Virus record (IMG/VR): IMGVR_UViG_3300041956_000050
Coordinates: 44,064-108,063 of that record
Length of the DNA: 64,000 nt
From: a virus
Direction: 5' to 3' (one strand)
Each line of letters starts with the position of its first letter. Position 1 is the first letter of the stretch. Under the pieces are notes generated by a model. It made no database searches, was not told where the DNA came from, and worked only from the letters and a program-made list of their open reading frames with translations. Made by a program: the position numbers and the translations under genes. Positions 40,482 through 46,213 of the stretch are shown in pieces.

Positions 40482-41027
40482 TTACCAGGGACAGGCAACG
40501 TCGTCGCGGTGGAGGGCACCGCAGCCCTTACAGTCGATCAGGCGACTGTCATCCGTCTTGCACTCGCCGTTGGCACGGCGCTCCCGAGCGCGAGCGATCC
40601 CATCGTGGATCGTGTGCTTGTGCTTGGGCTTTTCTGACACAGTGGGGAGCGGCTGCTGCGGGTTCGGCTCCAGCGGAGACTCGACCTCCTCGCCCTCCTC
40701 GACCTGGCTATGCCAGTAGTGATGGCAGCGCCGACGGTCATCGTCGGTCTGCTGGCCGGTGCCACGGCAGGCATAGCACGGCCCGGTCTTGCCGGTGTAC
40801 TTACCGTTGACAACCGCGCCGCCCATATAGAACAGCCCGGAGCCAAGGCACTTGAAGCACTTCTCCTCACCGGCCACTTCGACGGTGAACCAGTCCACCG
40901 GATACCACTCGGCGCGATCCTTGCCGTAGCGGTAGATGTTGGCCCGCGTTCCGTCCTTACGGACGGCCAGCACGATGCCGCTGTCGCCATCGCGGACGTT
41001 CTTGACGATGTTTCCCTTGACCATCAT
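40482..41027 (-). CDS. DnaJ-type Zn-finger protein
   Basis: CFKCLGSG...CYACRGTG and a further CKGC; AAGGAG RBS. Confidence 0.65.
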   Translation of the reverse strand: MMVKGNIVKNVRDGDSGIVLAVRKDGTRANIYRYGKDRAEWYPVDWFTVEVAGEEKCFKCLGSGLFYMGGAVVNGKYTGKTGPCYACRGTGQQTDDDRRRCHHYWHSQVEEGEEVESPLEPNPQQPLPTVSEKPKHKHTIHDGIARARERRANGECKTDDSRLIDCKGCGALHRDDVACPW

Positions 41028-41049
41028 GTCTCCTTTGTTGACACAGTGA

Positions 41050-41110
41050 GGATGGCTGCTGGACGCCGGAAGTACACACACCAGAGACTCCCGACGCCCA
41101 GCAGCCACCC
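41050..41110 (-). ncRNA. 24-bp RNA stem-loop (possible RNase III site)
   Basis: Fully paired on the minus strand with 4 G.U pairs, which are all A.C mismatches on plus. Confidence 0.6.
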
Positions 41111-41139
41111 ACTCTGTGAGTGAGTGACTGTTGACTGTT

Positions 41140-41775
41140 TTAGTAGCTGACCGAGTTGACGGTGATGCCAGCCTTCGGCACGCAGAACGCCCACACGTTG
41201 ACGGCCATCGGATCGACCGTCGAGTGACCGCCAGCGTTGCCGCCGAACTGGACGATCCAACCGTCAAGACGGTTGTCCTTCGGCGTGTTCGTGTTCCAGT
41301 CCATGCGACCGGGGAAGGACGACGACACCGGAGTGTTACGGTTCCAGTCGCCAGTCTGGACAACCTGCACGCCGCCACTGATGGCAACGTAATCCTGCGA
41401 GCGGCCCTGATCGGCGGGATCGCACGCGACGGTGGCGATGGCACCCTGATTGGCGTTGCTGTACTTGGCAACGCTGTAGAAGCCACCCATGACACCGGGG
41501 TGACCGTTCTTGCCAGCGGGACCGGTGTCACCCTTGACACCCTGCGGACCCTGCGGGCCACGCGCACCGGTCGCGCCAGTGGCACCCTGCGCACCGGGCA
41601 CACCCGGCTTGCTGAGCAGCTTCTGGACGCCGGGGGAGAGGTCACGCTTGTGGACAGCGCCGTTCTGGATGTTCTTGCCGGTGATCATCTCCGGCACGCC
41701 AGCGGCGTTGGCAGCCGGGACAGCGAGAGCGATGGCAGCGGTCGTTGCGATGGCGATGGTACGAATGCGCTTCAT
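41140..41775 (-). CDS. secreted collagen-like protein
   Basis: Signal peptide, ITGKNIQNGAV repeat-like motif, Gly-X-Y run. Confidence 0.75.
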   Translation of the reverse strand: MKRIRTIAIATTAAIALAVPAANAAGVPEMITGKNIQNGAVHKRDLSPGVQKLLSKPGVPGAQGATGATGARGPQGPQGVKGDTGPAGKNGHPGVMGGFYSVAKYSNANQGAIATVACDPADQGRSQDYVAISGGVQVVQTGDWNRNTPVSSSFPGRMDWNTNTPKDNRLDGWIVQFGGNAGGHSTVDPMAVNVWAFCVPKAGITVNSVSY

Positions 41776-41861: not shown

Positions 41862-42167
41862 CTAGAGCGCCTTGACGGTGACGCGGATCTTCTGCGGCTT
41901 GCCGAGCGCCGCATCCTGCTCCTGCGAGAGATAGACCGGCGAGGAGCCGTTGTCGCTGATCTCCTCGAAGCGGACACCGCCGCCCGACTGCGGCTCGTGC
42001 GGCTTGATCTCGCGGGTCGTGCGGTCGCGCTTGCCGCGCTGCATCGTGATCGTCACGCTGTCCTGCTCGCGCTTGGGGGTGCGCGTGCGGGTGGCAGCGG
42101 GCTTCACCGTCGTCGTGTTCTTCTTGACGGTGGACTTGCGGGTACGACGGGTGGCGGTGGTCGCCAT
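41862..42167 (-). CDS. small basic protein with T/R/K-rich N-terminus
   Basis: AGGAGG RBS before ATG 42167; lies just downstream of ribozyme HH-A. Confidence 0.7.
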   Translation of the reverse strand: MATTATRRTRKSTVKKNTTTVKPAATRTRTPKREQDSVTITMQRGKRDRTTREIKPHEPQSGGGVRFEEISDNGSSPVYLSQEQDAALGKPQKIRVTVKAL

Positions 42168-42223
42168 GATTGATCCTCCTGTGGATCGGTGAGTGGCAGT
42201 CACTATGACTGGCACATACTGTG

Positions 42224-42315
42224 TACCGACAACCCTTGCGGTCGTCAGCGCGAGCACACACTCGCGAAGCCGCCAGTGTTGGCGGACTTTCGGCTGTTTT
42301 CAGCCGTTGTCGGTA
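42224..42315 (-). ncRNA. hammerhead ribozyme variant HH-A (non-canonical permutation)
   Basis: Minus strand: UACCGACAAC-GGCUG AAAA CAGCC-GAAAG(U)CCGCCA ACAC UGGCGG CUU-CGCGAG UGUGUG CUCGCG-CUGACGA-CC GCAA GG-GUUGUCGGUA; predicted cut between 42267 and 42266. Confidence 0.8.
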
Positions 42316-42488
42316 TTGACAACGATCACCCAGTTGGCATCGGGGTGCATTCCCCAGCGCGCCATGAACAGCGCGGCCGACAGCGTGCCGTCGTCATACT
42401 TGTTCATGTCAAGCCCGACCTCCAGTGCCTCGTCAACGGAGTTGACAGTAAGCTCGGGCCAGTCGGACGAATATATGACACTTGTCAT
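42300..42488 (-). CDS. hypothetical protein; its stop codon lies inside HH-A stem II
   Basis: AAGGAG RBS; TGA at 42302-42300. Confidence 0.6.
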   Translation of the reverse strand: MTSVIYSSDWPELTVNSVDEALEVGLDMNKYDDGTLSAALFMARWGMHPDANWVIVVNTDNG

Positions 42489-43308
42489 ATGTGCTCCTTT
42501 GCAGGGGTTTTCAGTTGCAGCAGACGGGACCGTGATCAGTCTCGATCACGTCCGGCCACCAGCTAGGCCGCACGCGGATACCGCAGCGCTCGCGCCCGCC
42601 GATCTTGCCCGAGGGCATTACCGCGCAGCCGATGATGTCAATTTCGACATCATTCATGTCCGCGAAATGCTCCGCATCGCGCTCGATGACATCGTACATG
42701 TCATCATGCACCCTGTAATAGCGGCGAGCGATGAAGCGGCCAGTGGCGAAGTCGGTGAACTCGAACGGGAATGTGTTACGCATAATGACATGCTCCTTTC
42801 AGGGTTTGATACTAGCGCCAGCTACTGCGGCGACGCTGATTGTCAGCGAACCACGCCTCGTAATGGCGCTCGGACAGTGACAGCGGCACGACATTCGCGC
42901 CCGAGCCGATGGCCGGATCGACCATCAGCGTCTCTGCCGCCATTACTGACAGCGGCGGCTGCTTGGGTGTGCGCTTGCGAGCCGGACGCTTACGCGGCGG
43001 CTCAACGGTGACGACAGCGGTCTGGACAGCCGCAATCGCGGCATCGAAGTCGAACATGTCAGCATCCCTCCGGACGCGAGTAGGTGACAAAGCCATCGGC
43101 CTGGACGTGAGCGTCAAGCCAACGGCACCCAACGGGGCGCGTGAGAATGGCGTCACCGTTGACGGTATCGTCAGCGATGTGCTGCCAGTCGTCGCCCATA
43201 AGGGCGATACGCGCCTTCTGCGCATCGGTGAGCGGATTCATGTCACGGAACGCTTCCCGTAGGGCCATGTCACGCATATTGTTCACCCTTTCCTTGTTTG
43301 ATCCTACC

Positions 43309-43605
43309 CTACGCCACGTAGGGGTCGTAGTTGTAGAACGTTCCGACCTCACTGTCAGTGATCGGAGCGCACGCCTCAGCGTCCGCCTCCAGTCGCCGGA
43401 GCGTGCGCTCCAGCGCAGCCAGCGCACGGCCGGAGCCAACGCGAGGGTCGGCGGTGCCGGAGAAGACCTCGATCTTCGCACGCTTGGCACCCTGAGCCTG
43501 CGACTCTCCGAGCCAGACCTGACGCCCATTGGGCAGGATCGCGGCGATCACCGTGGTGCCGACATTCGTCGGAATGGCAACCGTATCGAGCGTAGTGGTG
43601 AGCAT
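43309..43605 (-). CDS. hypothetical protein downstream of HH-B
   Basis: AAGGAG RBS. Confidence 0.65.
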   Translation of the reverse strand: MLTTTLDTVAIPTNVGTTVIAAILPNGRQVWLGESQAQGAKRAKIEVFSGTADPRVGSGRALAALERTLRRLEADAEACAPITDSEVGTFYNYDPYVA

Positions 43606-43626
43606 TACTGTTTACTCCTTACTGGA

Positions 43627-43715
43627 AGTGTCTGATCCCCCGTAGGGTCATCAGCGAGGGCACACACCCTCGAACGCCCGTAGGCGTTTCGGCCGTTTTC
43701 GGCCGATCAGTCACT
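43627..43715 (-). ncRNA. hammerhead ribozyme variant HH-B (same topology as HH-A)
   Basis: Minus strand: CUGAUC-GGCCG AAAA CGGCC-GAAACGCC UACG GGCGUU-CGAGGG UGUGUG CCCUCG-CUGAUGA-CCC UACG GGG-GAUCAG; predicted cut between 43673 and 43672. Confidence 0.8.
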
Positions 43716-43749
43716 ACTGTTTCACCCCTATGGGGTGGCCGGAATTGGC

Positions 43750-43929
43750 TCAGCCGCAGACCGAGCTACGCTGCCCGAAACCGAGCGCACGCATATCGCG
43801 AAGCCGGATGGAATCCTCACGCTCACGCTCATCGGCGAGATACTGCTCACGGACCCAGGTGAAGTCCTGCGAAGCGGACGCGACGAGGTTGGAACCGGTG
43901 CCCTCGGAGGGATCGAAAATACGCTGCAT
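43750..43929 (-). CDS. hypothetical protein
   Basis: GAAAGG RBS before MQRIFDPS. Confidence 0.5.
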   Translation of the reverse strand: MQRIFDPSEGTGSNLVASASQDFTWVREQYLADEREREDSIRLRDMRALGFGQRSSVCG

Positions 43930-44159
43930 TTGACTACCTTTCGTGTGGAGAGACAGTGTAAACACTGTCATTGATATGAAATATGACAAGTGGAATATGA
44001 CGTTTCGCTACCCTTGACATTCCACTCCCTTCCCGGCCTCTCCCGCTTCTTCCTTCTTGCGCGAGAGGTCCGTGTCAGCATTAGTGACACAGTGAAGCGG
44101 GGAATCTGCCCCGCAGCGGCGAAAATGTGCGCCCAGGAGCGTTCACTGTGTCAATAATC

Positions 44160-44441
44160 CTACCACTTCGTGCGCTGCGTACCGCGCGCCTGACGCCTGC
44201 GGGCGTGACGGCCGTTGATCGGCTTCTGGTGGAAGACCATCGGCTGCACATCGGCCTCGGCCACGCGGCCTCCAGTGACGCCGACACGAGTCTTGACATT
44301 CACTGTGTGACCGTTCTGCTTCGGTGAGGTGCGCAGACCCTTGACAGAAGTCAAGCCGGTGTAGCGCATATCGCCAGCGCCGTAGCCGGAGACGCCAGTG
44401 CAAGCGGTGCTGATCGGTGCTTGGGTGATTTCTGACAGCAT
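44160..44441 (-). CDS. hypothetical protein
   Basis: AAGGAG RBS. Confidence 0.55.
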   Translation of the reverse strand: MLSEITQAPISTACTGVSGYGAGDMRYTGLTSVKGLRTSPKQNGHTVNVKTRVGVTGGRVAEADVQPMVFHQKPINGRHARRRQARGTQRTKW

Positions 44442-44509
44442 TTTGACTCCTTTGGAGGGATGGTGGGGTGACAGTCATCTGTGCTGCCACCCCGTAGGGG
44501 TTGTTCGGC

Positions 44510-44794
44510 CTACAGCGAGGCGTAGTAGAGCGAGGCGTCGAGCATGGTGGGGAAGATGCGGCAGAAGTCGCGCATCGTGCGGTAGGGGCGAAGCCCGCTG
44601 TCACGGTGAGCGGAGTTGATCCGCTGGAACTGCCCGCTGCTCGGCTTGAGCGTGGCCATCTGCGCATCGCGCTTGGGGTCGCGCATGGTGGGGGCGCTCG
44701 TCTGCGCCTTACGCGGGAGCGCGATGGGCGCAATGGTGGTGCCCTCAAGGAGAGCGTTGACTTCTTCGATGGTGGCGATCATGGTGGCGGTCAT
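44510..44794 (-). CDS. hypothetical protein, first gene of the leftward arm
   Basis: GAAAGG RBS before MTATMIAT; lies just downstream of HH-C. Confidence 0.6.
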   Translation of the reverse strand: MTATMIATIEEVNALLEGTTIAPIALPRKAQTSAPTMRDPKRDAQMATLKPSSGQFQRINSAHRDSGLRPYRTMRDFCRIFPTMLDASLYYASL

Positions 44795-44833
44795 TTTGAC
44801 CCTTTCCGACAGCGTAGCTGTCAATGGTGGTGT

Positions 44834-44904
44834 GTGTTTCGGCCTTCCCGAAGGGCCATCCTCAGGCACTTTGTCAGCAAAGCTGACAGGGGACTGTGCG
44901 ACAC
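44834..44904 (-). ncRNA. type III hammerhead ribozyme HH-C
   Basis: Minus strand: GUGUC-GCAC[...UGUCAGC UUU GCUGACA...]GUGC-CUGAGGA-U-GGCC(CUUCGGGAA)GGCC-GAAACAC; GUC cut between 44900 and 44899. Confidence 0.8.
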
Positions 44905-45638
44905 TGCGCAGATCGAGTTTCCAGACCCCGTAGGGGTCAACGAGTTGCTGCGCTTTGTCCGTGAGGCTTCGCTCCCGGTTTCTGCCGGGTTGGCTGCCCT
45001 GAATCCGTAGGATCACGACTCCCTACGGGAGGATGCGAATAAGCGCTCCGTCGTGTCGCTTGTCTCCCCTACGGGGAGGGTTGCCATGTGGGCCAGCGTG
45101 ATCTACCGCCTCGGCGCTATCTGGACGCATCCTCGCATGATTGTTCCGTGCCCTCACGATTATTGGGCACATCCCTACTTCCCGGCGCTGCGATGCCTGC
45201 TAGGCGACAACGCACACGACGGTTTTCGACCGCACTGTTCACGCAACCGTAAGCCCCAAAGGGACGGCCCTCACGCACGCCTAGCCGTGAGGAGGGAGAT
45301 TGCGCACCGATCCGGCTCATGCGAGCGTGTTCTCGGACGGATTTGCACTGGGCACTAGCCCACACATGCCTATGTGGGTGCCCGCTGTGTGTCGGCGTCG
45401 TGCGCTGCCCGCTGTGGGCCTTAGGCGCTGCGCTCCGGTTATGTGGGAGCGGCCTGTGTCGGGAGCGGACGGCTCGACCGACGCCCCAAAGATCGGCCGG
45501 GTTCCTAAAGAGAATCTAAAGAACCCCTCTCGGAGCGGATCAAAAAGTGCCGTTTTGCAGGGAAGATAAAGTTAGATAAAGATGTCTCAAGACCCCCAAA
45601 TTGGCCAATAGTCAGGATTGTTGGCATTGGGAAAAACC

Positions 45639-45806
45639 CGCTATTTGCGGGATTCTCAAAAGGTCGCTATTTGCGGACTTTCTCGCGAGGGCAAAATGTC
45701 GCTATTTGCGACATCTCGACAAGGGTGTTTTCACCGTGTTTTTCAACGGTGAAAAGCTGTCGTGAATGCTTACTGTGAAAGCTGAGGTGACATGTGAGGT
45801 GACATG
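45639..45806. repeat. repeat cluster in AT-richer divergence region
   Basis: CGCTATTTGCG x3 (45639, 45665, 45700); TTTTCACCG/CGGTGAAAA inverted repeat (45728-45755); TGAGGTGACATG x2 (45783-45806). Confidence 0.8.
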
Positions 45807-46213
45807 TCACTATGACTGTTACTTACCCCCACCCAATTTCCTGTCACTAATGGCGCGACTTACGGTGAAGCGGATGTACGAGAGTCTGCCACCGGCAGAG
45901 AATGCTGACCCCTGAGGAGGCTGATTCATCACTCTTGACGTAGGCCCGGAAGCCCGAGTTGCCCTCAGGGTGCCGCTCTGTGCCCTGCCCCTGGCCCATT
46001 CCTACCATCCCCACCCAGTGTTTCAACAGTGTTGACACAGATACGCGGCGTAAGTCGAGCGTTCCGCTGCTGATCTCAGTGCGGGAGCGTGGCTCGGGTT
46101 GACCCCTACGGGGTACAACCCTGAGATTCCATACTGTTGGTACAGATTTGCTGGGATCAGGCGGGGATGCTAGCCTGTGCGGGACAACCCGACGACCCCA
46201 GGAGGTCAGCCCC

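Follow-up and report, generated by a model that had tools for sequence, protein, structure and literature searches.

A candidate hammerhead ribozyme layout opened between A9 and G10.1 in an operon of a tailed phage

Introduction

In prophages, clustered hammerhead ribozymes flank genes or short gene blocks and cleave both in vitro and in vivo, and the majority of type II members form a pseudoknot between loop I and the tail that follows stem II (Perreault et al. 2011, PMC3088659). In most natural hammerheads, a loop 1 of the UNmYN form docks onto a loop 2 of the RNnA form, and loop 2 is in nature most commonly a GNRA or an AAAA tetraloop (Dufour et al., PMC2632901). The types SGC, CSG and GCS were published in 2023 by Eckert et al., who derived six possible permutations from unbroken blocks and reported no known alignment with more than one or two inserted nucleotides beside CUGAnGA (PMC10085705). 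One extra nucleotide between A9 and G10.1 is present in the (+) hammerhead of CChMVd (the chrysanthemum chlorotic mottle viroid), as De la Pena and Flores (2001) are cited in PMC2632901. Here, we describe two small RNAs, HH-A and HH-B, encoded in a 64,000-nucleotide stretch of viral DNA (positions 44,064 to 108,063 of the IMG/VR record IMGVR_UViG_3300041956_000050, hereafter called the window), in which a larger insertion, comprising two helices and both RNA ends, is found at this same position.

The window represents the 3' 64 kb of a 108-kb record with a completeness rating of 96%. The genome belongs to an uncultured tailed phage, with genes for terminase, portal, major head protein and helicase, and its G+C content is 61%. 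Our analyses suggest that HH-A and HH-B are genuine and probably active hammerhead ribozymes with capped stems, opened at A9/G10.1 and involved in operon processing; we estimate the chance of this, as that of their self-cleavage, at about two in three.

A hammerhead core interrupted between A9 and G10.1

HH-A (42224-42315) and HH-B (43627-43715), both on the minus strand, are intergenic small RNAs with a complete hammerhead core. From 5' to 3', each consists of the 5' strand of a closing helix (P0), a GGCYG-AAAA-CRGCC hairpin, GAAA, the stem III hairpin, U16.1-U17, a stem I of 6 base pairs (bp) with the loop UGUGUG, the box CUGAYGA, an additional tetraloop hairpin (P2b) and the 3' strand of P0 (Table 1). 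P0, the AAAA hairpin, the core and P2b adjoin without unpaired linkers. The coordinates, strand and order of parts, as proposed in an initial annotation made from the letters alone, were borne out when we re-read the sequence. That annotation had drawn the closing helix of HH-B (CUGAUC/GAUCAG) too short, as 4 bp more are found beyond an A-A mismatch. The P0 helix of HH-B is thus made of 6 bp, the mismatch and 4 bp, about equal in length to the 10-bp P0 of HH-A.

In both copies, the core comprises C3-A9 (CUGAYGA), G12-A14, A15.1-U16.1 and H17, which is U (not G). Three helices abut it through the pairs C1.1-G2.1, G10.1-C11.1 and A15.1-U16.1, and all are kept by compensatory change. G10.1-C11.1 is a base pair of the capped AAAA hairpin, and the sole break in the circle of strands falls between A9 and G10.1: A9 runs into P2b and the 3' strand of P0, and G10.1 is reachable only from the 5' end via P0. 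The block that starts with CUGAnGA is considered unbroken (Eckert et al. 2023) if at most one or two nucleotides separate it from the stem II strand; in HH-A and HH-B, P2b and the 3' strand of P0 follow the box instead.

The capped AAAA hairpin was assigned as stem II because it matches both the type III relatives and the docking motifs, while P2b is short and variable. Type III relatives with the same UGUGUG loop I harbour a stem II of GGCC/GGCC or GCUC/GAGC, capped by AAAA, AAGA, GUUA or GAAA. As for the docking motifs, UGUGUG reads as U-N3-Y-N and AAAA as R-N2-A, and both loops are invariant in the two copies. P2b has 2-3 bp, its length and loop vary between copies, and as stem II it would yield a C10.1-G11.1 pair. 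The sequences thus support both the identity of stem II and a chain broken between A9 and G10.1, in line with the initial annotation, according to which all classic stems are closed and the strand enters and exits at the 9/10.1 position.

The G-S-C block order of type II (GAAA, stem III, U17, stem I and CUGAYGA) is retained, with an interrupted block C. No open stem II is found, since the bases after A9 (CC...) and those before G12 (...GCC) give zero or one pair, as against three or more in 121 of 140 sampled cores. The earlier view that the elements lie outside types I-III is correct in that their layout differs, but it relied on a typing that predates the 2023 types, and the block order is still that of type II. 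Altogether, the sequences support a known class, the hammerhead, with a new connectivity in which the type II order is combined with a split block C. Put differently, the layout is a circular permutation opened at a fourth site, located within the junction rather than in a loop.

Table 1. Features of HH-A and HH-B, canonical hammerhead of the same operon and relatives sharing stem I and loop I (coordinates in the window)
Feature	Coordinates	Strand	Remarks
HH-B P0 5' strand (AGUG-A-CUGAUC)	43705-43715	-	CUGAUC mimics the core box CUGAUG
HH-B capped stem II (GGCCG-AAAA-CGGCC)	43691-43704	-	base pair G10.1-C11.1; RNnA-type loop II
HH-B G12 A13 A14 A15.1	43687-43690	-	
HH-B stem III hairpin (ACGCC-UACG-GGCGU)	43674-43687	-	
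HH-B predicted cleavage site, U17 (43673) / C1.1 (43672)	43672-43673	-	by analogy, from the numbering of hammerheads
HH-B stem I hairpin (CGAGGG-UGUGUG-CCCUCG)	43655-43672	-	loop I of UNmYN type
HH-B core box C3-A9 (CUGAUGA)	43648-43654	-	
HH-B extra hairpin P2b (CCC-UACG-GGG)	43638-43647	-	immediately 3' of A9
HH-B P0 3' strand (GAUCAG-A-CACU)	43627-43637	-	AUCAG also complements core C3-U7 (anti-core)
HH-A P0 5' strand (UACCGACAAC)	42306-42315	-	last codons of the open reading frame 42300-42488; box mimic CCGACAAC vs CUGACGAC
HH-A capped stem II (GGCUG-AAAA-CAGCC)	42292-42305	-	contains the UGA stop (42300-42302) of the 62-residue open reading frame
HH-A GAAA and stem III hairpin	42268-42291	-	one bulged U; loop ACAC
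HH-A predicted cleavage site, U17 (42267) / C1.1 (42266)	42266-42267	-	by analogy
HH-A stem I hairpin (CGCGAG-UGUGUG-CUCGCG)	42249-42266	-	
HH-A core box CUGACGA	42242-42248	-	
HH-A extra hairpin P2b (CC-GCAA-GG)	42234-42241	-	
HH-A P0 3' strand (GUUGUCGGUA)	42224-42233	-	with the preceding G, alternative 10-bp helix with G2.1, core box and CC (GCUGACGACC)
GUUGUC upstream of HH-A, within the open reading frame	42318-42323	-	can pair with GACAAC of the P0 5' strand in the minimum free energy fold of the longer context
HH-C, canonical type III hammerhead, same operon	44834-44904	-	predicted cut after C44900
Type II relatives with 6-bp stem I and UGUGUG			L008, L011, L019, L026, L048, L017, L022
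Type III relatives with 6-bp stem I and UGUGUG			L006, L009, L025, L038

Comparison with described ribozymes

The type II (GSC) hammerheads (RF02276; PMC3088659) share with HH-A and HH-B the order GAAA, stem III, site, stem I and CUGANGA, a 6-bp stem I with UGUGUG and, in phage operons, an intergenic location that immediately precedes a ribosome-binding site. Of the members sampled, a fifth also harbour an anti-core tail, which is described below. They differ by an open stem II of 3-4 bp in which 10.1 is joined to A9, whereas stem II is capped in HH-A and HH-B, an extra hairpin follows A9 and the RNA ends are carried by a separate helix of 10-11 bp. None of about 120 sampled type II cores shows the latter arrangement. 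We considered a pairing of the loop I GUGU with the ACAC that follows P0 and rejected it, as the ACAC of HH-B extends P0 and canonical UGUGUG relatives lack such a tail.

The type III phage hammerheads of loci L038, L025, L009 and L006 harbour the same stem I/loop I and stem II/loop II pair (GGCC-AAAA-GGCC). There, the open stem is stem III and the box that adjoins stem II is the active one, while in HH-A and HH-B the corresponding box is degenerate (CUGAUC in HH-B, CCGACAAC in HH-A) and serves as a helix strand. The SGC, CSG and GCS types are also natural rearrangements of connectivity missed by standard models, but they reorder three intact blocks and create pseudoknots, whereas HH-A and HH-B split block C, keep the ordinary order and form no pseudoknot. 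Single-nucleotide A9/G10.1 insertions, as in CChMVd (+), HH-C, L017, L022 and L010, affect the same backbone position; in HH-A and HH-B the insertion consists of two helices and both ends of the RNA. Finally, the natural hairpin ribozyme is embedded in a four-way junction, which joins its two catalytic domains. It thus also uses a perfect four-way junction as a scaffold, although it belongs to another class, and in HH-A and HH-B the junction lies between the core and stem II. We found no description of the A9/G10.1-opened layout in the hammerhead literature, of which our coverage of subscription journals was incomplete, so that a prior report is possible.

Some type II hammerheads (L234, L266, L300 and L236) harbour a palindromic 11.x strand (GGCC) with two conceivable partners: the downstream 10.x strand, which would leave stem II open, and a GGCC located 4-6 nucleotides upstream, which would yield a capped hairpin. 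They may represent stepping stones towards a capped stem II.

Fold, covariation and chance expectation

Folded in isolation, each element adopts the five helices in its minimum free energy (MFE) structure (z = -5.0 and -5.4), and none of 200 shuffles was equally stable. A covariance model built from HH-B alone with the proposed structure detected HH-A at 54 bits (E ~1e-12) and no other credible match in the window. In the structural alignment of HH-A with HH-B, 98% of cells are paired and 9 of 25 pairs are altered on both sides (4 in P0, 1 in stem II, 2 in stem III and 2 in stem I), counts that are favoured by the fitting of the alignment to the proposed model, although the helices are plain in the sequences. 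Controls with slid partners gave zero or one double-changed pair. Paired bases differ between the copies in 20 of 48 cases (42%), as against 1 of 21 for the bases of the core and loops I and II (Fisher p = 0.0017), and this single difference is at N7 (C vs U), the one core position that is free in all hammerheads. These counts agree with the initial annotation, which had noted that the stems diverge yet still pair and that the core and loops I and II are conserved.

A full descriptor requiring the core, a capped stem II, P2b and a P0 of at least 5 bp has two matches in the 108-kb genome and none in 100 dinucleotide shuffles.

Search for further members

At gathering score, Rfam reported no match in the window, and no hammerhead family emerged from 42000-44000 or 44000-46000 when matches with E up to 10 were admitted. 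Weak or no matches had been anticipated for the new layout in the initial annotation. HH-C had no Rfam match either, even at E up to 10, and Hammerhead_II at gathering score reported a single hammerhead in eight of the fetched loci (L008, L011, L019, L026, L048, L017, L022 and L009), in which the descriptor recognizes about a dozen canonical hammerheads of type II or III. Because Rfam reported one among about a dozen, its silence on HH-A and HH-B is weak evidence. Numbers of phage hammerheads derived from Rfam are therefore probably far too low. The only match nearby is a weak one of HH-A to the DUF3577 RNA (RF02954) at 42244-42318 on the minus strand (18 bits, E = 2.6), which we treated as a probable chance match; the consensus of that RNA also consists of a hairpin, CGAAA and two hairpins, resembling two thirds of a hammerhead.

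Pattern scans were performed to collect relatives. A pattern combining stem II, loop I and the box had no match in IMG/VR. With the loop I pattern (GAAA...GUGUGUG...CUGANGA), 55 loci were retrieved from IMG/VR, many of them ordinary phage hammerheads with a 6-bp stem I and UGUGUG. The pattern GGCC..GGCCGAAA gave 100 stretches in IMG/VR. A metagenome scan gave 23 loci and a genome-contig scan 17, and the AAAA-hairpin and GUAAUGC loop patterns in IMG/VR gave none with the new layout among the matches listed. For all scans, the real hits among the matches listed are canonical type II or III hammerheads. The patterns were tied to specific loop or stem II sequences and would overlook members in which these differ. 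The descriptor and the covariance model R2 were also applied to ~3.7 Mb of fetched loci. Over ~1.7 Mb of these, R2 retrieved only canonical relatives, at 33 bits or less, and thus the search of phage loci with a new covariance model, advocated in the initial annotation, brought no further member with this layout.

A possible second partner for the 3' strand of P0

When 20 to 60 nucleotides of flanking sequence are included, the MFE folds drop P0, and its 3' strand pairs with the core box instead. In HH-B, AUCAG of this strand pairs with C3-U7 (CUGAU), and in HH-A, GGUUGUCGGU pairs over 10 bp, including three G-U, with G2.1, the box and CC. It is the likeness of the P0 5' strand to the box (CUGAUC vs CUGAUG in HH-B and CCGACAAC vs CUGACGAC in HH-A) that makes such P0-less folds possible. 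This box mimic tracks N7, with U in HH-B and C in HH-A.

A similar complementarity is found in canonical relatives. Anti-core tails, defined as at least 5 bases complementary to C3-N7 and starting at most 2 nucleotides after stem II, are present in 22 of 110 distinct canonical type II hammerheads, with a mean of 3.1 and a maximum of 8 cases in 300 trials with shuffled tails. The pair formed with N7 is C-G in 15 cases, U-A in 5 and U-G in 2, a C at N7 going with GUCAG tails and a U mostly with AUCAG. This recurrence and the covariation at N7 point to selection on the pairing with the core. We found no description of the anti-core tail of type II hammerheads in the hammerhead literature examined. 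Examples occur in L017, L022, L048, L019, L234, L266, L300 and L010, in which the alternative hairpin would mask the core or trap the 3' product. The P0 3' strand of HH-A and HH-B looks homologous to the type II anti-core tail, and the new feature, from sequence comparison, is the upstream box mimic that captures it.

Exchange of partners by the P0 3' strand might hold the ribozyme off until P0 forms. Alternatively, it might take place after the cut, displacing the upstream product and locking the downstream one, which would solve the release of products held by a 10-bp P0. The mimic of HH-A and the upstream GUUGUC (42323-42318) lie in the last codons of an open reading frame (ORF), and ribosomes could shift the balance because the P0 5' strand is part of these codons. 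We tentatively propose that HH-A and HH-B combine a fourth natural opening of the hammerhead circle with a strand-exchange device, in which the mimic/anti-box P0 would correspond to the on state and the anti-box on the real box to the off state or to product release. HH-A would be translation-coupled, and the elements would represent a living intermediate of permutation by duplication. As a whole, this proposal is possible rather than probable.

It is also conceivable, although we would not bet on it, that the ribozyme is active with P0 as a mere clamp and that the ability of the P0 3' strand to pair in two ways has no function, being left over from a duplication of the CUGANGA box or from an anti-core tail that was inherited. 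The box mimic, stem II and GAAA indeed read as block C, stem II and block G of type III relatives, and the complement of a box copy automatically complements the box. However, the mimic and the real box stayed matched at N7 despite the divergence of 4 of the 6 aligned P0 pairs, and anti-core tails with N7 covariation recur in many independent canonical type II hammerheads devoid of an upstream mimic.

Regarding their origin, HH-A and HH-B probably descend from phage type II/III hammerheads with a 6-bp stem I and a UGUGUG loop. A type II hammerhead with an anti-core tail may have acquired an upstream box mimic, or the elements may be trimmed tandem duplicates (box'-II-GAAA-III-site-I-box). The 5' third of HH-B (box mimic, stem II and GAAA) is about the same string as the box-stem II-GAAA segment of type III relatives, a likeness that fits tandem duplication followed by trimming but does not prove it.

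Proposed mechanism and alternative readings

In the active form, the break at A9/G10.1 would be bridged by a perfect four-way junction of the core/stem II, P2b and P0, without unpaired linkers. Stacking would presumably place the core on the capped stem II, and P2b on P0 (10-11 bp), in which case the A9-to-10.1 link alone must leave the stack. Loop I (UNmYN) would dock onto loop II (RNnA) as in ordinary natural hammerheads, and the RNA would cut after U17. The A9/10.1 joint tolerates insertions in this lineage, because one inserted base gives the best fit in 9 of 21 canonical type II relatives and likewise in HH-C.

Several points weigh against active ribozymes with this layout. The break is next to the G10.1 metal-site region, where a junction might distort the core. 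Both copies have U as H17, while relatives carry C. GUU and CUU sites are usually slower cutters. The core-sequestered fold is favoured over the enforced hammerhead fold by 3.5-9 kcal/mol, as calculated from nearest-neighbour MFE values that ignore tertiary contacts. The layout rests on two copies in one genome, and no second genome harbouring it was found in the IMG/VR, metagenome and genome-contig pattern scans, which yielded ~120 distinct canonical type II cores. The model-fitted alignment mentioned above must be added to these points.

HH-A and HH-B might therefore derive from hammerheads but be dead or very slow, with a relic core in a stable multi-hairpin punctuation that would serve as an mRNA stability or host-nuclease signal. 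In addition to H17 = U and the sequestered core of the predicted in-context ground state, the interruption of the backbone at A9/G10.1, which published surveys treat as uninterruptible (PMC10085705), would be consistent with this idea, and some clustered hammerheads may be non-functional according to Perreault et al. (PMC3088659). Nevertheless, 20 of 21 core and loop bases are identical while the stems diverged by 42%, and a relic made only of hairpins needs no intact CUGANGA, GAAA, U16.1-H17 or docking loops. We thus consider inactivity unlikely.

A placement of P2b in the stem II position, corresponding to the other stacking form and to a break between 11.1 and G12, is very improbable. In its favour, a perfect four-way junction can in principle adopt either form, and P2b is covalently attached to A9. 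The AAAA hairpin, however, is nearly invariant, harbours the canonical G10.1-C11.1 pair and has the length and RNnA loop found in UGUGUG relatives, and we rejected P2b as stem II on account of its 2-3 bp, its variable length and loop and the resulting C10.1-G11.1 pair. Chance resemblance or an unrelated structured RNA, in line with the lack of Rfam hammerhead matches, can practically be dismissed given the 0 of 100 shuffles matching the descriptor, the mutual detection of the copies, the nearby canonical HH-C and the little that Rfam silence says.

If HH-A and HH-B cut, the assumption that core blocks are never interrupted, on which current searches and the published theory of layouts are based, fails. 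Descriptor and covariance searches would then miss a ribozyme class, and the list of permitted permutations would be incomplete. The A9/G10.1 link would be able to bear a whole helical junction, which would be useful for the design of clamped or switchable hammerheads. The anti-core strand, which HH-A and HH-B share with about one in five of the phage type II hammerheads sampled, suggests a means of controlling cleavage or of releasing products, and the box mimic would provide a concrete route for RNA permutations to arise.

Operon context

A whole-genome scan revealed only three hammerhead-like motifs in 108 kb, all located within 2.7 kb on the minus strand and each preceding a gene with a Shine-Dalgarno site. 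The third one, HH-C, consists of GUGU-C17, a 4-bp stem I that encloses a 7-bp hairpin, CUGAGGA, a U inserted between A9 and G10.1, stem II (GGCC-CUUCGGGAA-GGCC) and GAAA-CAC. It is the only match to a full type III descriptor in the genome, with none in 200 shuffles, and its predicted cut is ~100 nucleotides ahead of the ATG at 44794.

Along the minus strand, a terminator-like sequence (45651-45637) and a promoter-like sequence (45590-45563) are followed by ~650 nucleotides, HH-C, three small genes, HH-B, five genes (coding for 98, 72, 81, 90 and 62 residues), HH-A and a gene starting at 42167. The P0 helix of HH-B ends 6 nucleotides upstream of AAGGAG, with an ATG at 43605. HH-A overlaps the 3' end of the 62-residue ORF (42300-42488), whose UGA falls in stem II. 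None of the ten neighbouring proteins or ORFs has a PHROG or Pfam match.

We read HH-A, HH-B and HH-C as operon processing sites because their arrangement matches that of the clustered prophage hammerheads of Perreault et al. (PMC3088659). Their cuts would divide the minus-strand operon into blocks of about three and five genes and a remainder. The upstream pieces released from HH-A and HH-B would carry hairpins II and III and a 2',3'-cyclic phosphate at their 3' end, and the downstream messages would start with a 5'-OH, hairpin I and P2b, shortly ahead of the ribosome-binding site.

Additional observations were made in the vicinity of the operon. In the 44905-45651 region (minus strand), the terminator-like hairpin with its U-run and the promoter-like site precede ~650 nucleotides that lack a convincing Shine-Dalgarno ORF and extend to the HH-C cut. 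This region may be a non-coding leader RNA freed by HH-C; the terminator and promoter scans were not above shuffle background. Further along, a 387-residue ORF (40482-41645, minus strand) without a Shine-Dalgarno start has no homologue in the protein collection, and neither it nor the helicase has close kin in IMG/VR. It is probably an artefact of high G+C content rather than a real gene, and a 211-residue ORF with a start signal (41775-41140) overlaps it. Finally, CA-rich runs (ACAC, UACACAC) are found after several hammerheads and just ahead of the ribosome-binding site, at 42218-42223, 43628-43631 and 44827-44837 on the minus strand and also in unrelated phage contigs (L310, L402 and L408). 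Such runs may represent unstructured spacers.

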